NCBI GenBank assembly: GCA_016186095.1
Contig: JACPMG010000003.1
Span: 1 to 52,199 of the forward strand
Origin: Candidatus Sungiibacteriota bacterium
Lineage (GTDB): Bacteria > Patescibacteriota > Minisyncoccia > Sungbacterales > HO2-52-23
Reading direction: 5' to 3'
Length of the DNA: 52,199 nt
The first letter of the stretch is position 1, and each line of letters opens with the position of its first letter. Positions 105-47,041 of this stretch are shown here, one piece after another. The notes beneath the pieces are model-generated. The model ran no database searches. It was given only the letters and a program-made list of their open reading frames with translations, and had not been told where the DNA came from. Position numbers and translations under genes: made by a program.

Positions 105-456
105 GAAAATTGCGCGGCCCTCCTTGGATTGCTCCTTGGAGGGCCGTTAACTACACCCGCAAGGCGGCCACTGAGGTCTTCACCCTCATGCCTTCTCCTT
201 GTCGCCGGGGTTACCCGCGTCGTTCTTACCTCGACCCATGGGTCGGGTGACGCGGGGTACACTCGCTCCGTGAACGCGCCGTCACAGGCGGACCGCTTGG
301 ATTTGCTCGGCGCGCCCACGGAGGTTGTTGACGAAAAGAACAGGGCTTTGGGATGCTGGCGTACCATCCCTCGGCCATCAAACAAGGTTAGCAACATTAT
401 GCCAACCGCCTGCCAAGGCTTCCTGAAAAATGACAGGGCAGGACAGACGCCAGAGA
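105..456 (-). ncRNA. Structured ~350-nt RNA; best guess RNase P RNA (rnpB-like), identity unconfirmed
   Basis: GC-rich non-coding block between a sigma70-like promoter (464-493) and a perfect 8-bp hairpin (116-123/138-145). On the minus strand there are order-conserved short matches to E. coli M1 RNA, recalled from memory: GAGCAAAUCC, GGUAAGAACG, GGGUAACCCCGGCGACAAGG, GUAGUUAACGG. The canonical GGAAAGUCC P4 motif is only imperfectly present (AGGAAGCC or CCAAAGCCC). Confidence 0.45.
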
Positions 457-2849: not shown

Positions 2850-4559
2850 TTAATTTTCCAAAATCACGAAATCTCCGGGCACGCGTACCCTTAACTGGGG
2901 ATTTTTTTGTTTAATTTCATTAATTAGTGCTTTGTCTTCTCCGTTAAGAAAAGCGATGACTGTCGGCTGATTACTGGTAACTAGTAACTGGTTACTAATA
3001 TTCTGCGGCAATACGTACTCCATATTTTTCTCCTTTTGTCCAGTTTCGCGAAAAGTATCTGTGGCAAACATTACGGTCTGCGCGGGCACGCTGATGCCGC
3101 GCACTTCAACTCCGGGGAGATTTACCACCACATATTTTTTGGTCTCATTCGGAAGACCGTCTAGAAATTTGCCAAGATGCCATAAATCGGTTGAGAAAGC
3201 AAAATAGGTCTCCTCGCTTCCGGCCCAACGGATAAAATAATTCCGGTAGGTAAGAATAGGGATTAGCGTCAGAAGCAAAATCGCCAGAAGCGCCACCTCT
3301 TTTTTTACCCTCTCAAGTTGGCCTATATACGTCGGCCATTTTAACTTCTGCAGATCCAGCCAATTTATAATCTTTTGGTAAATCCACCACGCCCCCAAGC
3401 CTGATAAAATCATCACCGGCGGGATTAGGCCGATGGAGCGAAGCGCATGAGGAAGGCCTTCGCGCGTTAGAGTGGCAGGGAGAGACATAAAGAGGAGCCA
3501 GGCTAGTAAGCTTGTAGTTTGTAGCTTGTAGCTTGTAGCGCGGAAAAATAGCTGACGGAGCATAAGGATAAAACCCGTGAGGAAGAATATGGCTACAACA
3601 GATTGGAGTTGGGGCTGGCAGGCAAAATTATGCCGCCAGTTGCAGTCGCCTCGTATAAAAAACATACCTAATGTTGCCAGATTTGATTTTATAAATTCCT
3701 TCAGAGGCGATATGGATGAGAAAATAGATACGTCTCCGGCTCTTCCCAGAAAGTCCTGCGGATTTTGTACAAAATGTAATCCGAGGGGAAGAGCGACCAC
3801 GAAGGTTATGAGAAAAAAAAGTAGTACCGCGCACGGCGCACAGTATTTATTCGTATAATTGGTATTCATTCGTATATTGGTATCGGTGTTCTTCCACCAT
3901 TTCCACAAATACCAAATAAGTGGAACTGCTAGGACAAACGGTATGAATCTGAAAGCAATGTACGTGTGAAAGCCAAGACCGATAAAAATCCCGGCCCAAA
4001 CCATATCCAGAATTTTTCCTTGCCGAAGCCCTTTTAGCAAAAAATATATTCCAAACGTTGCCAAAAACGGGATCATGATTGCCCGAAACCCTATGCGGGA
4101 GAAATTGATGTGCCAATAGCTCGTGGCCAAAAAGAAAGAGGAGAGCAGCGCTACGAAATACGAATTGGTACGAAAGTACGAAAGATTGTTTTTCGTAATT
4201 TCGTATTCTTTCGTATTTCGTAGCCAATGCGATTGTCCAAACAGTTCTTTGGTTAAAAGGTAAACTCCGAGAATGGTTAAAGTTCCAAAAATGGCGCTGA
4301 CTATTCGCAATGCCCATGGCTCAATTCCAAAAAGCCGAAGCGAGAGCGCCTGCAAATTTATAAATAGCCCTTCGCGGCCGTTATTTTCCGGATAAAACAC
4401 CTTGAAGTCGCCCGTGGCAATGGCTTCAAGCGCGTTATTCCCGTTCATGGCCTCATCCGGATAAAGTCCGGGCGGGACTTCGGTGATTTGGTAGAAACGG
4501 AAAAATGCGCCTATGGCTAGGATAAAAATAAGGGTGGCGAATTTCTGTCTTTTGCTCAC
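2850..4559 (-). CDS. ArnT/PMT-like GT-C glycosyltransferase, second paralog
   Basis: 569 aa with a GTG start. Polytopic, with loop motif LYPDEAMNGNNALEA. Carries three in-frame oligo-repeat modules. Confidence 0.8.
   Translation of the reverse strand: MSKRQKFATLIFILAIGAFFRFYQITEVPPGLYPDEAMNGNNALEAIATGDFKVFYPENNGREGLFINLQALSLRLFGIEPWALRIVSAIFGTLTILGVYLLTKELFGQSHWLRNTKEYEITKNNLSYFRTNSYFVALLSSFFLATSYWHINFSRIGFRAIMIPFLATFGIYFLLKGLRQGKILDMVWAGIFIGLGFHTYIAFRFIPFVLAVPLIWYLWKWWKNTDTNIRMNTNYTNKYCAPCAVLLFFLITFVVALPLGLHFVQNPQDFLGRAGDVSIFSSISPLKEFIKSNLATLGMFFIRGDCNWRHNFACQPQLQSVVAIFFLTGFILMLRQLFFRATSYKLQTTSLLAWLLFMSLPATLTREGLPHALRSIGLIPPVMILSGLGAWWIYQKIINWLDLQKLKWPTYIGQLERVKKEVALLAILLLTLIPILTYRNYFIRWAGSEETYFAFSTDLWHLGKFLDGLPNETKKYVVVNLPGVEVRGISVPAQTVMFATDTFRETGQKEKNMEYVLPQNISNQLLVTSNQPTVIAFLNGEDKALINEIKQKNPQLRVRVPGDFVILEN
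3508..3540. repeat. Tandem 7-mer AGCTTGT array inside a CDS
   Basis: agcttgt agtttgt agcttgt agcttgt agcg, translated on the minus strand as ATSYKLQTTS. Confidence 0.7.
3847..3885. repeat. Tandem TTCGTATA(A)TTGGTAT duplication inside a CDS
   Basis: Two adjacent copies, translated as NTDTNIRMNTNYTNKY. Confidence 0.7.
4150..4224. repeat. 75-nt (25-codon) palindromic ACGAA-rich element inside a CDS
   Basis: GCTACGAAATACGAA (4150-4164) is the exact reverse complement of TTCGTATTTCGTAGC (4210-4224). The length is a multiple of 3 and there is no stop. Confidence 0.75.
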
Positions 4560-8086: not shown

Positions 8087-8275
8087 GGTGTTCTCTTTTC
8101 GCGACACGTCTCGGCGGCTCCAGCGGCCGCCTCGCTAAGGGTCGTCGCGATTTTCCTCGCTATCGCTCGGAGCCAAGCAAATCGGAGACGGGGCGTCCTG
8201 CTGTGGGCGCTTCGCGCTCCTCGCAGGAACGCCTCGCGTCTGGACTCTTCCCATTATCGCGAGAAAGAGAACCCC
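8087..8275. other. GC-rich ~190-nt long imperfect hairpin; candidate ncRNA or composite palindromic element
   Basis: An outer ~17-bp stem pairs 8087-8104 with 8257-8275. An inner stem runs 8185-8199/8221-8240 with apex GCGC-TTC-GCGC (8207-8217). Side hairpins are GGCGGC..GCCGCC (8114-8132) and GCGA-TTTTCC-TCGC. Confidence 0.4.
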
Positions 8276-15087: not shown

Positions 15088-15125
15088 GAAAAGCCTTCTC
15101 GCTCGCGAGCGAGAAGGCTTTTCTT
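15088..15125 (+). terminator. Rho-independent terminator of csp
   Basis: Perfect palindrome GAAAAGCCTTCTCGCTCG/CGAGCGAGAAGGCTTTTC with a T-tract. Confidence 0.75.
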
Positions 15126-23119: not shown

Positions 23120-24052
23120 ATGGAAGAGAAAAATATAAAAGATCATATACTTCCGGCAAGCATCCTGATTGCTGCCGTCGTTATTGCCGGTGCCTGGGTA
23201 TATACCGCGAGATTAAAGGAAGCTCCGACGCTCCGGCTGCAGAGTGCGTCGGAGATCGGAGTCCCGACTTCGGAGGACGTCGGGAAAAAAGTTCTACCCT
23301 CTCAAGGAGTAGTCTTGCCTATCCGTTGGGGAGATCTTGGCGTCAAAATGGTCAGCGTAGGCCTGATCGATAAAGAGAGATTTGGAACTCTTTATGCGGA
23401 GCGCGGAGGTTTGAGCGCGGAAGAAAGAAAATTTCTTGAGCAGGCCGATAATGGTCAGATAAAGATTACTCCGCATAATTCCGGGATCTGGTTAAATATT
23501 TTTTGGGCCTTGGGATTGGGTACGAAAAATGATATTCTAGATGCAGGACCTATGGTGAGGTATGGCGGCGCGGGCTCGCCCGCCGAAGCCTTGGCGAAGG
23601 CGGGAAATTTTGCTTCAACCGGCGGATGGACTTTATCCAAAGGGGACGCCATGGAGCATTATAGTCGTCATCCTTTGATAGCATTGACGCCGGAGGAGCA
23701 GGAGCTGGTTGAACGCGTGAGTAAAAATATTTATCGTCCCTGCTGTAACAATCCGACCTATTTTCCCGACTGCAATCACGGCATGGCCATGCTCGGCCTA
23801 CTCGAACTTATGGCCTCGCAGGGTGTAAATGAAGAAGAAATGTATAAAGCCGCTTTGCAGGTTAACGCTTACTGGTTCCCGGATACCTATTTGACCATCG
23901 CCCAGTATTTGTCGTCCCAGGGAGTCAGCTGGGAAGAAGTAAATCCCAAAGAAATTTTGGGAGCAAACTATTCCAGCGGCTCCGGGTATCGCAAGATTCT
24001 TGATCAAGTCACCGTACCCGAAAGAAGAGGCGGCGGAAGCTGCGGAGTTTAG
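23120..24052 (+). CDS. Hypothetical membrane-anchored protein with a Cys/His motif
   Basis: 310 aa with CCNNPTYFPDCNHGMAM. Carries two palindromic insertions. Confidence 0.55.
   Translation: MEEKNIKDHILPASILIAAVVIAGAWVYTARLKEAPTLRLQSASEIGVPTSEDVGKKVLPSQGVVLPIRWGDLGVKMVSVGLIDKERFGTLYAERGGLSAEERKFLEQADNGQIKITPHNSGIWLNIFWALGLGTKNDILDAGPMVRYGGAGSPAEALAKAGNFASTGGWTLSKGDAMEHYSRHPLIALTPEEQELVERVSKNIYRPCCNNPTYFPDCNHGMAMLGLLELMASQGVNEEEMYKAALQVNAYWFPDTYLTIAQYLSSQGVSWEEVNPKEILGANYSSGSGYRKILDQVTVPERRGGGSCGV
23223..23285. repeat. 63-nt in-frame double-hairpin element (CTCCGAC/TCCCGAC family)
   Basis: CTCCGACGC (23223-23231)/GCGTCGGAG (23246-23254) and TCCCGAC (23262-23268)/GTCGGGA (23279-23285). Encodes APTLRLQSASEIGVPTSEDVG. 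Confidence 0.75.
23579..23604. repeat. 26-nt palindromic element identical to 9523-9548
   Basis: CCCGCCGAAGCCTTGGCGAAGGCGGG. Read here as PAEALAKAG, but as TRRSLGEGG in dnaX. Confidence 0.8.
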
Positions 24053-24094: not shown

Positions 24095-24295
24095 GTGAAT
24101 CAAAATTTAGGAAAATTGTACAGGATTTTACGATTCGCGCTCGCGTTTTGGTGGCTCGGCCCGTGGGCGCCTCAATTTGGTGCCGCATGGGCAAACTGGC
24201 TTATTGTCTTTGTCGGTTGGGTTGCGCTTGCCGAAAGTTTACTCGGCTGGTGCGGACTTCACCGCCTGTTTAAAATAGACAATAGAAACCAGTAG
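24095..24295 (+). CDS. DUF2892/YgaP-TM-like small membrane protein
   Basis: 66 aa with a GTG start. Two TM segments and a conserved Cys near the C-terminus (GWCGLHRLF). Confidence 0.5.
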   Translation: MNQNLGKLYRILRFALAFWWLGPWAPQFGAAWANWLIVFVGWVALAESLLGWCGLHRLFKIDNRNQ

Positions 24296-24654: not shown

Positions 24655-25350
24655 ATGCATTACGCTTGGCTCATCTGGAGTCTTATGCTTTTGGTTGTTT
24701 GGGCCGCGGTCTATCTTTCTTTAGAAAGTAAAGAAAGTAGAAAGGAGATGCTGGTGGTAAGCCTGTGGACTTCTCTGTTCGGGCTTACAGAGCCCTTATT
24801 CGTGCCGGAATACTGGAGTCCGCCGTCGCTTTTTGATTTGGCGCTAAAGACCGGCTTTGATTTGGAGAGCCTGCTTTTCATTTTTGGCGTTGGCGGTCTT
24901 GCGGTAGTCATCTATGAGAGAATCTTTCGGGTTAAGCATGTAAAAATCAGCGCGGAAGAAAAACACCGGCCGCGTCACAAATATCACCTGCTGGCCATTC
25001 TTTCAGCGCCGATGATCGGTATCCTGTTACTGGTATTTACGGACTTTAACCCTATTTATTCTGTATTCATCGCGCTAATCGGCGGCGGATTGTTTACTTG
25101 GTATTGCCGTCCCGATCTTAAAAAGAAGATGTTAGCAAGCGCATTTATATTTTTGGTACTATATTTTGTTTACTTTCTGACTCTCGTGTTTATGTATCCC
25201 GGATATGTCCAACAAGTCTGGAATCTCTCGGCAATATCAGGAGTTCTTATTTTAGGAATTCCCCTGGAAGAACTTATGTTTGCTTTCGGGATAGGATTTT
25301 TGTGGTCGAGCGCGTATGAGCATATTGGCTGGCGAAAACTCAATTATTAA
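24655..25350 (+). CDS. Lycopene-cyclase-domain-like polytopic membrane protein
   Basis: 231 aa with a PLEE motif (GIPLEELMFAFG). Confidence 0.5.
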   Translation: MHYAWLIWSLMLLVVWAAVYLSLESKESRKEMLVVSLWTSLFGLTEPLFVPEYWSPPSLFDLALKTGFDLESLLFIFGVGGLAVVIYERIFRVKHVKISAEEKHRPRHKYHLLAILSAPMIGILLLVFTDFNPIYSVFIALIGGGLFTWYCRPDLKKKMLASAFIFLVLYFVYFLTLVFMYPGYVQQVWNLSAISGVLILGIPLEELMFAFGIGFLWSSAYEHIGWRKLNY

Positions 25351-25360
25351 AACCTATCGT

Positions 25361-27535
25361 ATGAACCATAAACACAACGCCCAATTTTATACCTGCCCGA
25401 TGCATCCTGAAATAAGACAGGATAAGCCGGGCATGTGTCATGAATGCGGGATGAGTTTGGTGCCTACAGATGCAATCGACGCGCATCATGAACATAAGGC
25501 ATCCACTGACGCACATGATAAGCATGCTGGCCACAGCACGAAAATGTTTTTGAAAAAATTTTGGGTGAGTTCAATCCTCACCATCCCGGTAGTGCTTTAC
25601 GCGGATGTTCTTCAAAAAATCTATGGATGGTCGCCGCCGGACTTTCCCGGATCGGCGTATTTGCCGCTCGTGTTTGGCTCGGTGGTGTTTTTTTACGGCG
25701 GCTGGGTATTTCTGGCAGGAGCATACCGGGAGCTCAAGGCCAGGCTTCCCGGCATGATGACGCTTATCGGTATTGCGATTTTGGCAGCTTACCTCTGGAG
25801 CGTGTACGCGGTATTTGCGGGCGCGGAGGCTTTATTTTGGGAGCTTACGACTTTGATTACCATTATGCTTCTTGGCCATTGGCTTGAGATGCGGGCGGTT
25901 TCAGCCAGCCAAGGAGCGCTCAAAGAACTTTCCAAACTTCTTCCGGATACCGCTGAGGTAATCCGTAACGGCAGAATAGAAACGGTCGCTCTTTCTGAGC
26001 TTAGGGAAAAAGACGTGGTGTTTGTGCGACCGGGAGCTAAAATTCCTGCCGATGGAGTTGTTATGGAAGGTAAAGCGGAAGTGAATGAAGCTATGGTCAC
26101 GGGCGAATCCGCGCCGGTCGCCAAAATGACCAATAGCGCGGTTATCGCAGGCACCATAAATGGTGACGGGGCGCTTAGGATTCGCGTCAGCAGCATCGGC
26201 GAAAAAACATTTCTTGCCGGCGTAATGCGCTTGGTGGCCGAGGCGCAGGCCTCCAAGTCGCGGCTTCAAATTCTTTCAGACCGGGCGGCTTTTTACTTGA
26301 CTATCGTTGCCGTGGCCGGAGGACTCATCACTTTAATAGCTTGGCTCCTGGTCGGTGCTGAAATCGGTTTTGCCGTGGCGCGGCTTGTGGCGGTCCTCGT
26401 CATCGCCTGTCCGCACGCCCTGGGTCTTGCGGTTCCGCTCGTGGCTTCTATTTCAACCACACTTGCGGCTCGTCACGGATTTCTCGTCAAGCAGAGGTTG
26501 GCGCTGGAAGCGGCGCGAAGCACCAATATCGTTCTTTTTGATAAAACCGGAACTCTGACCCGCGGTGAATACGGCGTGACAAATATATGGCCGGTAAAAG
26601 TAGATGAGGAAGAGCTATTTCGGGTGGCCGCGTCAGTTGACATGCATTCCGAACATTTCATTTCCAAGGCCATTGTGAAAAAAGCGGAAGAGGGCGGCGT
26701 TAAAATGGCAGAAGTCAAGGATTTCGCGCGTCTTCCCGGCAAAGGGGTAAGGGGGAGTATAAACGGCGTGGTTATATTTGTCGGCGGGCAGGCGATTTTG
26801 GACGATCTTCAAGTTATGCTGCCCGGGCCGCTTAGAAGCGAGACGGAGGAAGAAAGTAAAAAAGGAAAAACTATTATTTATGTAATTGCGGAGAAAGAAC
26901 TATTGGGTATTTTCGCTCTCGCCGATCTTATAAGAGAGGAGTCGCGCGAAGCAATTCAGGGTTTGAAGGCAATGGGCGTAAAAATTGCGATGGTCACTGG
27001 TGATTCGGAAGGCGTGGCCTCGTGGGTTGCCGGGGAACTGGGCATTGATGAATATTTCGCGAGAGTCCTGCCGCACCAGAAATCGGAAATCGTAAAACGA
27101 TTACAAGAAGGAAAAGCTCCGACGCTCACGGAAGAGAGGTCGGAGTCCCGACCGACTGAAAGTCGCGTCGGGAGAAATAAAGTCGCCATGGTGGGTGATG
27201 GCATTAATGACGCTCCGGCGCTCACCCAAGCAGACCTTGGTATCGCTATAGGCGCGGGCACAAATGTCGCGATTGAATCAGCAGGCATTATTCTTGTCCG
27301 CAATGATCCGCGCGATATTGTGAAAATCATCAAATTATCGCGTCTCACCTATACCAAAATGATTCAAAATCTTTTCTGGGCTACGGGATATAATGTTGTT
27401 GCTCTGCCGCTTGCCGCAGGCGTATTGGTATCAGAAGGAATTCTGCTTCAGCCGGCCCTGGCCGCACTCTTTATGTCTCTTTCCACTATCATTGTCGCAA
27501 TAAACGCGGTGCTTCTCCGAAATAAAGCATTATAG
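25361..27535 (+). CDS. copB: Heavy-metal (copper) translocating P1B-type ATPase, CPH subtype
   Basis: N-terminal YTCPMHPE...CHECGM metal-binding module and a His-rich stretch. TM CPH motif (ACPHAL), DKTGTLT and [14 protein letters not shown]. Confidence 0.9.
   Translation: [724 protein letters not shown]
27117..27173. repeat. 57-nt (19-codon) in-frame double-hairpin element in the ATPase P-domain
   Basis: CTCCGAC (27117-27123)/GTCGGAG (27139-27145) and TCCCGAC (27146-27152)/GTCGGGA (27167-27173). Encodes [19 protein letters not shown] just upstream of [14 protein letters not shown]. Confidence 0.8.
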
Positions 27536-42886: not shown

Positions 42887-43459
42887 ATGCCGAAAAATTC
42901 AAAAAAATTTCCGCCTTCTGCCAAACGCGTCTTCAAGGGCGTACTTTTTGATATATGGCAGTGGAAGCAGAAGATATATAATGGAAGGGTAGAGACGTTT
43001 GAGAGAGTTATACGTTCCGATAGCGTGCAGGTTATTGCCGTGGTCGGCAAAAGAATTATAATTCAGGAACAGCTTCAGCCAAGTTGGCCCAAGGCCATGC
43101 TTACTTTCCCCGGCGGACGCGCGGACGAAGGGGGCAGTATACTTGAGGAAGCAAAACGTGAGCTTTTGGAGGAGACGGGTTATGTTTCGGATGACTGGGC
43201 GCTATGGAAGACCGTCAAGCCCTCCATGACGGTAATTTTTACCATATATATCTTTGTCGCTCGTAATTGTAGAAAAGTTGCCAGGCCCCAGCTTGATGGA
43301 GGCGAGAAAATCAAAAACAAACTTGCATCTTTTGATAAATTCCTCCTGCTTTCCGAAAATCCCAGATTTCGCGAGTCCGAAGTGGCGGCGGAGATGCTCC
43401 GCGCCCGTCTTAATAAACGGAATAAAACTAGGCTCCATAAATTACTTTTTAAAAAATGA
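42887..43459 (+). CDS. NUDIX hydrolase
   Basis: NUDIX box GGRADEGGSILEEAKRELLEETGY. Its TGA overlaps the dnaG ATG. Confidence 0.75.
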   Translation: MPKNSKKFPPSAKRVFKGVLFDIWQWKQKIYNGRVETFERVIRSDSVQVIAVVGKRIIIQEQLQPSWPKAMLTFPGGRADEGGSILEEAKRELLEETGYVSDDWALWKTVKPSMTVIFTIYIFVARNCRKVARPQLDGGEKIKNKLASFDKFLLLSENPRFRESEVAAEMLRARLNKRNKTRLHKLLFKK

Positions 43460-45243
43460 GTTCTCCGATTGATGATATTAAATCCCGCCTTGACTTGGTG
43501 GAGCTGATCCAATCTTACGTTCGTCTCCAGAAAGCAGGGATCAACTACAAGGCCAACTGTCCTTTTCATACGGAAAAAACCCCGTCCTTTTTTGTCTCGC
43601 CCACCCGGCAGATGTGGCATTGTTTTGGATGCGGGAAAGGCGGCGACCATTTTAAGTTTGTCATGGAAATTGAGGGGCATGAGTTTCCCGAGGCCTTGCG
43701 CATGCTTGCCCAACGTGCCGGAGTGGTCTTGAAAAGAGAAGACCCCGCTATTCGTTCCGAGCGTAACCGCCTGTATGATCTTTGCGAGGAGGCGACCAAA
43801 ATTTTTGAAAGGAATTTGGCGCTGACTCCTGCTGTCAAGACGTATCTTAAAAACAGGGGAGTGGTTGGTGAGACCGCGAAAGAATTTCGTATCGGTTTTG
43901 CCCCGCAAAGCTGGGATTTTTTAATGAAGGCGCTTAGCGCCAAAGGTTTTCGCAAAGAAGAAATTGAAAAGTCCGGCCTGGCTATAAAATCAGAAGACGG
44001 AAATTCATGGTATGATCGTTTCCGAGGCAGGATCATGTTTCCGATTGCCGACGGCAACGGCCGCGTAGTTGGTTTTAGCGGGAGAGTATTTGAAGAAGTC
44101 CCGACGCGCTCCGCGGTCGGGACCCCGACTCCCGATAAAAATCGGGACGTCGGGGCAAAGTATGTTAATACTCCGAATACCCTAATTTATGATAAATCTC
44201 ACGTGCTCTATGGTTTTGACAAAGCCAAGCAGGAGATCCGCGGCAAAAATAAAGTGGTGGTGGTGGAAGGCCAGATGGATTGCGTAATGTCGCATCAGGC
44301 CGGAGTGAAAAATACGATTGCGGTATCGGGCACGGCTCTTACCCCTCAGCAGTTGAAGGTCCTGCGCCGGCTCTGCGATACAATCGTAAGCTCTTTTGAT
44401 ACTGATGCTGCCGGAGATACGGCGACTAAGCGCTCTTTGGCGCTAGCCACGGAGTTTGAGTTTGAACGAAAGATTGCCGTGATACCTTCGGGCAAGGATC
44501 CTGCCGATGCGGTTTTAGAAAATCCAAAATCATGGCTTGGTGCGGTGGAGGCGGCCAAACCCGTGGTGGAATTTTATTTTGAAAAATCGTTCCGGGGGCA
44601 TAATCCATCCGGTGCTGACGGCAAAAAAGCCATTTCGGCCACGCTCCTTCCTTTGATTGCGGAGCTGGGGAATGAGATTGAAAAATCCCATTGGGTAAGC
44701 GAGCTTGCGCGCCGCCTCTCGGTGCGCGAAGATTCAGTATGGGCGGAGCTCAAGCGTAAAAATGCCGGAGCCGCGACACCCAAGACCAGCGAGCCGGTGG
44801 AGGCCGGGCGGGTTCCGACCAGGCGCGATCTGCTGGAGGAGCGGATGCTGGCGCTTTTATGTTTTGTGAAGGAGGATTTACGCAAAAAAGAGTTCGCCCA
44901 TCACTACGTTGCTTTCACTTCAGACATAAACCAGCGAATTTTTGAGACACTGCTGGGGGGAAAAGTGACTGTCGCGGCGCCGGAATTGAAAAATGATTTT
45001 GATCTTCTTCGTTTCAAAGGCGAGGTGCTGGTGCAGATGACGCATGATTTGGAGGAGGAGTTTCTTTCCTGTAAACGGGAGCTGGAAAAAGAGTGCATCA
45101 AGGAACGGCTTCTGAAGATCGGCGGGGAAATAGAGAAGAAAGAGAAAGAGGGAGACCGCGTTTTGGTGACCTCTCTCTTGCAGGATTTCCGCGCGCTTTC
45201 TGATAAATTAAAACTGCTATCGCATGATTATGCCCAAAAGTAA
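43456..45243 (+). CDS. dnaG: DNA primase
   Basis: CHC2 zinc finger ([11 protein letters not shown]...CFGCG), a TOPRIM domain ([16 protein letters not shown]). Confidence 0.9.
44098..44155. repeat. About 57-nt in-frame double-hairpin element in the dnaG RNA-polymerase domain
   Basis: GTCCCGAC (44098-44105)/GTCGGGAC (44116-44123). CCCCGAC (44123-44129)/GTCGGGG (44149-44155) encloses TCCCGAT-AAAA-ATCGGGA. Encodes [19 protein letters not shown] just before KYVNTP. Confidence 0.8.
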
Positions 45244-46423
45244 GAAAAAAATCATAAAAAAGAAAAAACCGGTCAGGCGCCAGACAGCGGATGTTAAGAA
45301 GGGGTTGGGCGAGAAACCGCCGTCCAGGAAAGAATCGGCCGAGGAGGCGGAGAAAAAAATTCAGCTGCTTATGAAGAAAGGCCGCGAGCGGGGGTTTGTC
45401 ACTTATTCTGAAATTCTTTATTATTTTCCGACGATTGAGGAGGATATTATGCTTTTGGAGGATTTGTACGCGCGGCTGGAGCGCGAAAATATTCAAATAC
45501 TTGAGTCGAAAGAATTTATTGAAGAAGGAGAAAAAGAAGAAAAAGTCTCCTTGAAAAGAAAAAAACGCGAGGCGGCGCTTGACTTTGAGCAAATGTCGCA
45601 GGATTCCGTGCAGATGTATTTGCGTGAAATCGGGCGTATAGCGCTCCTTACCGGGGACGAGGAGAAAGAGCTTGCCAAGCGGATTGAAAAGGGAGATGAG
45701 GAGGCGCGAAAGAAACTGACACAGGCAAATTTGCGCCTGGTGGTGTCCATTGCCAAGCGCTATGTCGGACGCTCTGCGCATTTAACGCTTCTTGATTTGA
45801 TCCAGGAGGGTAATTTGGGACTTTTTAAGGCAGTAGAAAAATTCGATTACCGCCGGGGGTATAAATTTTCTACCTACGCCACCTGGTGGATTAGGCAGGC
45901 CATCACGCGCGCCTTGGCGGATCAGGCGCGGACTATCCGTATACCGGTGCATATGGTGGAAACAATTTCCAAATATCAGCAAGTCAAGCGCCGACTGGTG
46001 CAAGAACTGGGCCGGGAGCCTTTATCGGAAGAAATTGCTGCCGAGATGAATTTGGAAGTTGAAAAAGTGCATCATCTGGAAAAAATAGAACAGGATACGG
46101 TGTCGCTTGAAGCACCGGTGGGGGATGATGATGAAGATTCGGTGCTCGGCGAATTTATCGTGGACGAAAAAACGCTTAGCCCTTCGCAGGTTGCCGCGCG
46201 GCGGCTGCTGCGCGATCAGCTGAATCATATAATACGGGAGTTAACACCGCGCGAGCAGAAAATTCTTTCCATGCGTTTTGGGCTGGATGATGGTATAACC
46301 CATACTCTGGAAGAAGTGGGCAAGGAGTTTGGAGTGACCAGAGAGCGTATCAGACAAATTGAAGCCAAGGCGCTCGAAAGAATCAGACTCCACGAGACGG
46401 CGAAAAAATTTGAACAATATTGA
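45224..46423 (+). CDS. rpoD: Primary RNA polymerase sigma factor
   Basis: Region 2 ([13 protein letters not shown]), region 3, and region 4.2 ([20 protein letters not shown]). Overlaps the dnaG end. Confidence 0.9.
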
Positions 46424-46699: not shown

Positions 46700-46771
46700 T
46701 CCCCAGTAGCTCAGCGGTAGAGCGGCTCGCTGTTAACGAGAAGGTCCCAGGTTCGAATCCTGGCTGGGGAG
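46700..46771 (+). tRNA. tRNA-Asn (anticodon GUU)
   Basis: Hand fold: acceptor TCCCCAG/CTGGGGA, anticodon loop CTGTTAA, T-loop TTCGAAT. Flanked by a perfect 14-bp leader/trailer inverted repeat. Confidence 0.9.
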
Positions 46772-46798
46772 AAAATGGTTTTACTATTTTTTATACAG

Positions 46799-47041
46799 AT
46801 GTTTTTCATATATGTGTTGCAAAGTATTTCATATGGAACGCGTTATGCCGGTAGTACTGATAATATAGAAAAAAGATTGAGCGAACATAATAAGGGCCGT
46901 TGCCGATATACCAGCGGACGCAAGCCATGGGAGATTGTATATCGGGAAAAATTTGAGTCAAGGGGTGAAGCAATGAAGCGCGAAAAATTTCTAAAATCGG
47001 GACAAGGAAGAAAATGGCTAGACGATAATTTATCCGGTTAG
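46799..47041 (+). CDS. GIY-YIG nuclease family protein (UPF0213-like)
   Basis: MFFIYVLQS..YGTRYAGSTDNIEKRLSEHNKG...KPWEIVYREKFESRGEAMKREKFLKS. About 80 aa from ATG 46799. Confidence 0.8.
   Translation: MFFIYVLQSISYGTRYAGSTDNIEKRLSEHNKGRCRYTSGRKPWEIVYREKFESRGEAMKREKFLKSGQGRKWLDDNLSG

Follow-up and report, generated by a model that had tools for sequence, protein, structure and literature searches.

The palindromic elements of Rickettsia (RPEs) were reportedly described by Ogata et al. in 2000 and 2002. REPs, which by definition are extragenic and are mobilized by RAYT (Y1/HUH) proteins, carry a GTAG motif 5′ of the stem, and in REPINs the doublet folds into a single long hairpin. MITEs usually measure some 100 bp or more and have terminal inverted repeats derived from insertion sequences, together with target-site duplications. 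In organelles, the mitochondrial GC clusters, the double-hairpin elements of Allomyces and the 'byp' elements of Magnusiomyces are GC-rich hairpin repeats that invade the coding regions of compact genomes, and the 'byp' elements are skipped by translational bypassing. MITE copies that lie in frame within genes are described as occasional (PMC10969869). In the passages of the same paper that deal with RPEs, these are about 100–150 bp long, restricted to Rickettsia and encode a conserved peptide in one frame per family; they lie in frame in unrelated, often essential genes without destroying them, as well as between genes, and in-frame palindromic repeats in essential genes are there regarded as, so far, essentially a peculiarity of Rickettsia (PMC10969869).

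Here we analysed a 52,199-nt stretch (hereafter, the window) of contig JACPMG010000003.1 from Candidatus Sungiibacteriota, which contains a double hairpin within the DNA primase gene. On the basis of the open reading frame (ORF) list, Pfam and AlphaFold2, the host ORF (dnaG, 43456..45243, plus strand, 595 aa) encodes a complete bacterial DnaG with Zn_ribbon_DnaG (CHC2 zinc ribbon), DNAG_N, Toprim_2/4 and DnaB_bind domains, and it matches PDB entries at 1e-37 to 1e-56. Its 3′ end overlaps an rpoD-like sigma-70 gene (45224..46423, plus strand, from the ORF translation), and related loci have the same sigma-70 neighbour, making dnaG–rpoD a conserved pair. Nucleotides 44098–44155 encode V215–G233, immediately followed by K235–Y236 of the KY(V/L)N(T/S)P motif, in which K235, Y236 and N238 are invariant across 118 primase homologs. 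The E. coli equivalents of the first two residues, K229 and Y230, belong to the 'basic ridge' implicated in the use of initiating substrates (PMC7367122). The insert comprises 57 nt, keeps the frame, contains sense codons only and is translated as a 19-residue Pro/Thr/Gly-rich coil.

In the AlphaFold2 model (118 homologs, mean pLDDT 89.6), residues 218–231 score below 50 and residues 212–235 have no secondary structure; the insert is predicted to sit in a disordered loop between the preceding strand, 204–211, and K235–Y236. Solved primases are 16–17 residues shorter at this point (E. coli 1eqn/3b39, GRVLGNDTPKYLNSPET; S. aureus 4e2k; 5guj, 5vaz and 2au3), in line with the initial annotation, which had called the E. 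coli stretch short; none of these structures has the insert, so that a homologous loop in unrelated primases, which would have spoken against that annotation, was not observed. An expanded, hypervariable loop of 8–45 aa with almost no sequence conservation is present in 120 of the 120 closest primases (58–100% identity), several of which are named Sungbacteria or Sungiibacteriota. The site therefore appears to be permissive in the whole clade, and tolerance of an insert in a loop that is both hypervariable and disordered in the model is to be expected. The initial annotation had found such tolerance notable: the position beside the KY motif stands, the site is less surprising than was assumed, and what the primase can teach is modest, the disordered loop being hypervariable in the clade already. 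A scan of the genome collection with the primase gave only relatives of at most 55% identity, which were used for context; close Sungbacteria came from primase-encoding contigs.

The nucleotide sequence of the insert (copy C; 44098..44155, plus strand, supported by sequence, RNA and DNA folding and pLDDT) forms two hairpins. Unit 1 (44098..44123, plus strand, from folding) pairs GTCCCGAC (44098–44105) with GTCGGGAC (44116–44123) around the loop GCGCTCCGCG, which has an inner 3-bp stem. Unit 2 (44123..44155, plus strand, from folding and ortholog covariation) has the outer stem CCCCGAC (44123–44129)/GTCGGGG (44149–44155), which encloses a nested unit, TCCCGAT-AAAA-ATCGGGA (44130–44147), and a bulged C at 44148. 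The coordinates and sequences of the initial annotation agree with these in every position, and folding confirms that an in-frame, hairpin-forming insert abuts the conserved motif. Folded as RNA, the 58 nt yield two abutting hairpins of −42.3 kcal/mol, against −24.8 ± 3.2 kcal/mol for dinucleotide shuffles (z −5.4; 0 of 200 shuffles equally stable); folded as DNA, they reach −26.4 kcal/mol (z −6.2). Among 10,428 sliding 60-nt segments of the window, this copy has the top stability (z −6.2). An intrinsic terminator was rejected, because the 3′ flank of the GC-rich hairpin, GCAAAGTATG, has no T-run and nothing terminator-like was found at 44098–44155, and so was programmed translational bypass of the T4 gene 60 or byp kind, because the insert consists of in-frame sense codons and has no stop.

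Two further double hairpins are present in the window. Copy B (27110..27172, plus strand, GKAPTLTEERSESRPTESRVG, from folding and an empty-site ortholog) is a 63-nt in-frame insert in a heavy-metal P-type ATPase (ORF 25316..27535; Pfam E1-E2_ATPase, Hydrolase and HMBD), just upstream of GDGINDAP; its hairpin units span 27117–27145 and 27146–27173, and it ranks second in 60-nt stability across the window. In an ATPase ortholog of 70% identity, carried by a different Sungbacterium (L085:4985-7138, minus strand), exactly the 21 codons (63 nt) of copy B are absent. The two genes form a clean filled-versus-empty pair and thereby reveal an insertion polymorphism; no target-site duplication is evident at this one clean empty site. 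Strain-level presence/absence polymorphism of the element, which would have proved recent movement, was not found. Copy A (23222..23287, plus strand, APTLRLQSASEIGVPTSEDVG, from folding) is likewise an in-frame double hairpin, follows the N-terminal hydrophobic segment of a 310-aa ORF with no Pfam match (23120..24052) and folds at −37.8 kcal/mol (z −3.8), with a nested unit in its first hairpin. The motif CCGAC-N(3-30)-GTCGG occurs eight times in the window against 0.83 expected, and seven of the eight matches belong to the three doublets, all within ORFs; a scan for the 7-bp unit gave nine matches against 0.73 expected. The doublet pattern, which is found three times in 52 kb, had no match in 100 shuffles of the window.

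A metagenome scan with a pattern drawn from the three window copies matched at least 120 loci; searching for the same element, as the initial annotation had proposed, led to two other genes of the window and to loci outside it. Because these copies were selected by our own pattern, the consensus of the family carries some circularity; the pattern left free the positions for which covariation or G/C asymmetry is cited below. Each unit consists of a 7-bp stem, YYCCGAC/GTCGGRR, and a variable loop whose first nucleotide is G and whose last is G or A. Across 129 copies, the doublet consensus reads (NAG)YYCCGAC-G-loop-GTCGGRR, then YYCCGAC-loop-C-GTCGGRR(CTN). The G directly after the first CCGAC is present in 126 of the 129 copies, unforced by the pattern, and has its counterpart in the C that precedes the final 3′ arm, which indicates that the units are inverted (head-to-head); 129 of 132 copies have no spacer between them. 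Within each hairpin there is strong covariation at stem positions 6 and 7 (Fisher p 1e-24 to 1e-28). None is seen between the outer arms, through which the two hairpins could pair (p = 1), and just 1 of 129 copies has complementary loops. The element is thus two local hairpins, and a single long REPIN-like hairpin was rejected.

Copies are 37–82 nt long, the minimal ones 37–40 nt, with loops from 5–6 nt up to about 30 nt. The loop repertoire of minimal copies is small (GCTTCG, GTAAA, GTTTCA and their complements). Where the loop is longer, another unit is often nested in it: larger copies have an additional stem there, in many cases a CCGAC unit in its own right (L081, L004 and copy A), which in the dnaG copy is TCCCGAT/ATCGGGA. 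On the 5′ side of the stem, A is found at −4 in 72 and G at −3 in 61 of 129 copies, making TAG or NAG frequent but not fixed, and the outer flanks are weakly complementary (52–55 of 129 at positions 3 and 4). A scan of viral contigs with the doublet pattern gave only four single-strand matches, which we take as chance, and Rfam gave no family at the gathering threshold and, in a local search, only E values near 9.

Copies were found both in AT-rich intergenic DNA and in ORFs. Among the 120 listed metagenome copies, 25 are intragenic, as judged by 60 or more open codons to each side, and 40 are intergenic-like; the others lie on contigs too short to judge. Lengths that are a multiple of three account for 18 of 25 intragenic versus 13 of 40 intergenic-like copies, an in-frame bias, and the in-gene copies are stop-free, mostly multiples of three, and lie in charged, presumably surface-exposed loops with Lys/Glu-rich flanks, in essential proteins among others. 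Pfam-confirmed hosts are PurL, UvrA, a UvrD/AddA-like helicase-nuclease, GyrA, IF-2, a T2SSE ATPase and, twice, GyrB, at the same site in two species; ComEC, GatA and a class I aminoacyl-tRNA synthetase were judged by eye. At least three reading frames are used across the copies (APT..VG.PT..VG, PRR..SG and SPD..), and the encoded peptides are therefore unrelated between hosts. The GyrB case repeats the primase picture: in Nomurabacteria, 5 of about 115 homologs at 86–91% identity carry the element, at a site that is otherwise an acidic hypervariable loop before QRFKGLGEM.

With REPs, BIMEs and REPINs the element shares units of 20–40 nt that form imperfect hairpins around a conserved core, inverted pairing of units, a position that is often between genes and, possibly, a purine motif ahead of the stem, here NAG, that is conserved in part. 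It differs from extragenic REPs in that at least 25 of the 120 listed metagenome copies and three of three window copies are intragenic, and from REPIN doublets in folding as two local hairpins. No RAYT-like gene was found among the ORFs that flank the listed copies, and we know of no report of RAYTs from Patescibacteria. When 883 ORFs from the flanks of the 120 listed metagenome copies were clustered all against all, no transposase-like family recurred; the families that recur there are housekeeping genes and spurious ORFs across the element. MITEs are similar in being non-autonomous, multi-copy and of inverted-repeat architecture, but the element here consists of two hairpins only, shows no clear duplication at the ATPase empty site and has no identified parent insertion sequence. 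In contrast to the mitochondrial and 'byp' elements, the copies here are in frame, stop-free and enriched for multiples of three (18 of 25).

The likeness to RPEs is one of behaviour: both are multi-copy palindromic repeats that occur in frame in intact genes and also between genes, at positions compatible with the protein fold, and in genome-reduced, host-dependent bacteria. The element here is 37–82 nt long and made of two hairpins with 7-bp stems, whereas RPEs measure about 100–150 bp; it is read in at least three frames to give unrelated peptides, whereas each RPE family has one peptide; and it is found in several candidate phyla, with Sungbacteria/Patescibacteria as the host, rather than in Rickettsia only. 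This comparison is by description, and no sequence relationship is expected. Full-text literature searches of partial coverage returned no prior description of such repeats in CPR, Patescibacteria or Parcubacteria.

We therefore consider it probable, at about 70%, that the 58-nt stretch in dnaG is a copy of a multi-copy, non-autonomous family of small palindromic repeats of Patescibacteria (CPR), tolerated in a permissive loop. A family with REP-like anatomy and RPE-like behaviour, occupying intergenic DNA and permissive gene loops, is the best-supported description. The element is thus more remarkable than was first thought, being one of a multi-copy double-hairpin family that occupies two further genes of the window and, in other Patescibacteria, both intergenic DNA and many essential genes, and the main value of the dnaG observation is that it led to this family. 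If the reading is true, in-frame palindromic repeats recur in reduced, host-dependent genomes beyond Rickettsia. For annotation, such elements inflate loops, create spurious ORFs and can mislead alignments of markers such as gyrB, infB and dnaG. The family also allows the study of hairpins that are kept intact inside translated sequence, and a 7-bp stem with a fixed core is a compact system for finding a recognizing enzyme.

As to mechanism, we suggest that the family spreads or homogenizes through a single-stranded hairpin form. The agent could be an enzyme that recognizes hairpins, for instance a REP–RAYT-type HUH/Y1 transposase, or the route could be template switching or gene conversion between copies. 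Within genes, only frame-keeping insertions in permissive loops would survive, and in the primase the insert would be dispensable. The nested units, and the copy of hairpin 1 inside hairpin 2 of L081, hint at spread by way of the hairpin form. A bolder proposal, which we regard as rather doubtful, is that Patescibacteria harbour an active, hitherto unrecognized hairpin-based copy-and-insert system that recognizes the CCGACG stem-loop, prefers purine-rich DNA and the loops of existing units, and continually writes short new peptide loops into essential proteins; its preference for existing loops would produce the nesting. The proteins named in connection with this proposal are primase, gyrase, IF-2 and UvrA.

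The primase genes allow the history of one copy to be followed. Aligning DnaG orthologs, as the initial annotation had advised, found the element in about 7 of the 120 closest primases (P0001, P0007, P0010, in which it is decayed, P0018, P0031, P0075 and P0104) and unrelated loops in most others; P0058 has a possible remnant, and L004, at 51% identity, is a further carrier. All primase carriers have the unusual loop 1 GCGCNNNGCG, which argues for descent from one insertion, and the dnaG copy appears to be old, judging from orthologous copies down to 51% primase identity. The nearest relatives of the window primase (70–82% identity) have unrelated loops and no element, and in most primase relatives it is decayed or absent. 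Carriers are scattered on a star-like neighbour-joining tree of primases, a shape that does not separate gains from losses; repeated loss or decay of the dnaG copy is likely, and repeated gain may also have occurred.

Across the seven primase carriers, 95.8% of the stem cells (position by sequence) are paired. Hairpin 2 has compensatory double changes in 8 of 13 pairs, and 0 of 500 shuffles reach the observed covariation score. The nucleotides of hairpin unit 1 are nearly invariant across the seven orthologous genes: synonymous third positions within it are 85% identical (138 of 162), versus 48% (626 of 1,316) in 94 flanking codons, and the codons just outside the element vary freely. Given these compensatory changes and this synonymous conservation, the constraint acts on the nucleic acid rather than on the peptide. 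Because the primase copies look orthologous and ancient, their retention with intact pairing could mean a function at the level of the host.

Such constraint is also what a cis-acting mRNA structure specific to dnaG would leave behind, one that regulates the dnaG–rpoD operon, for example through ribosome pausing between primase subdomains, a site of RNase processing or stability, or autoregulation by primase binding. Compensatory pairing and conserved synonymous sites in orthologous primase genes fit this idea, as does the fact that copy C is the strongest local structure in the window. We nevertheless think it quite unlikely, because the structure recurs in genes unrelated to dnaG as well as between genes, while the closest relatives of the primase (70–82% identity) do without the element and only about 7 of 120 have it. 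Rfam has no match and a terminator-like T-run is missing; moreover, G·U and A·C mismatches in the sense strand of the stems are equally frequent (2 versus 2), so that RNA is not favoured over DNA as the level of action. Synonymous conservation and paired stem changes are, in turn, not predicted by selection on the peptide, which makes it very improbable that the palindromy is incidental to a protein-level adaptation in which the 19-residue Pro/Thr/Gly-rich loop modulates binding of template or initiating nucleotide, or contacts with partners. The placement of the insert directly before K235–Y236, the equivalents of the basic-ridge residues K229/Y230 of E. coli (PMC7367122), and a 13-residue peptide conserved among primase carriers are what such an adaptation would have in its favour, but the loop is disordered in the AlphaFold2 model, most relatives hold 8–45 unrelated residues here, and other hosts read the element in other frames to give unrelated peptides.

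The palindromes might instead have arisen locally and without mobility, being made and renewed time and again by template switching or slippage in a low-complexity, hypervariable coding loop, the likeness across loci then reflecting a shared mutational bias. The loop is indeed hypervariable, and short tandem repeats such as ESGIKNQESGKVE and PEAGSRKPEAAQAE fill it in relatives; hairpin 2 of L081 holds an exact local copy of hairpin 1 of its own lineage, and nested units are common. Local origin does not account for the recurrence of one and the same 7-nt core, of the G/C asymmetry of the loops and of doublets without a spacer at no fewer than 120 unrelated loci in several candidate phyla, nor for the clean 63-nt insertion in a conserved ATPase segment that is not of low complexity, and we judge it unlikely. 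A chance palindrome or an assembly artefact, for which only the small size of the element could be adduced, is hardly credible: no shuffle of 200 folds equally well, and the artefact is already refuted by the presence of the same element at the same codon in independent assemblies (NCBI, JGI and Logan).

Two further cases were set aside. At L190, two copies lie within 114-nt inverted repeats, but the gene that these flank encodes a Pro-rich membrane protein, not a transposase. Primase loops of the 'AKATED' type (L214 and L215) form strong folds and had no other copies in the 2.1 Mb searched. As for the small palindromic repeats themselves, the carrying contigs among the matches listed range from 31% to 59% GC, and several have two copies. 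The samples include groundwater, for example the Hainich contigs, and among the named carriers are Sungbacteria, Nomurabacteria (GyrB P0121) and Doudnabacteria (L048).

Beyond the primase gene, the double hairpin (two abutting hairpins with 7-bp stems) was present in GyrB of Nomurabacteria and a relative (L099:6941-6994 and L189:7201-7256). Both copies occupy the same site, a hypervariable acidic loop preceding QR(F/Y)KGLGEM, and the element was found in only 5 of approximately 115 GyrB homologues (86–91% identity). At a further locus, L190, two copies lie within inverted repeats of 114 nt each (L190:3-116 and L190:2205-2318), which are 88% complementary and enclose a gene encoding a proline-rich membrane protein of 504 aa.

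Next, the hypervariable DnaG loop that is filled by the double hairpin in the window carries other sequences in related primases. In other Sungbacteria, this loop is occupied by hairpin-forming sequences of the ..SSAKATED.. type (L214:10631-10717 and L215:9242-9346), which differ in sequence from the double hairpin and have folding energies of −39.5 and −42.2 kcal/mol, respectively. A search of 2.1 Mb of sequence yielded no further copies of the ..SSAKATED.. type. Short direct peptide repeats (ESGIKNQESGKVE, PEAGSRKPEAAQAE and QPTTYNLQPTTSE) occupy the loop in many relatives, including L088:2722-2775, and these types of loop, like the double hairpin, have a scattered distribution across the primase tree. 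Separately, precomputed annotation of P0053, a related primase of 973 aa from a sister lineage, lists an additional Pfam domain, PF14528. This domain is probably of the LAGLIDADG type; if that assignment holds, its presence suggests an intein in the dnaG gene of the sister lineage.

The genome of the window contains a second kind of intragenic palindromic repeat, unrelated to the double hairpin. A near-perfect palindrome of 75 nt at window positions 4150-4224, built from TACGAAA/T heptamers, four in direct and four in inverted orientation, lies in frame within a minus-strand ORF (2850..4559) encoding a multi-pass membrane protein of 569 aa, and is translated as ..RNTKEYEITKNNLSYFRTNSYF... Further TACGAAT clusters were located at 545-575 and 3849-3874, one of them within the same ORF.

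Last, very stable local structures (z of −3.9 to −4.6) were also detected at window positions 111-325, 8181-8240, 15088-15123 and 24136-24195, none of which matched an Rfam family at the gathering threshold. Among them are three structured segments in succession at the start of the window and, at 15088-15123, a perfect palindrome of 18+18 nt. Directly downstream of a tRNA gene (46700-46771), an ORF of 88 aa (46775-47041) carries a putative GIY-YIG-like motif, YVLQS..YAGST.., recognized by eye.
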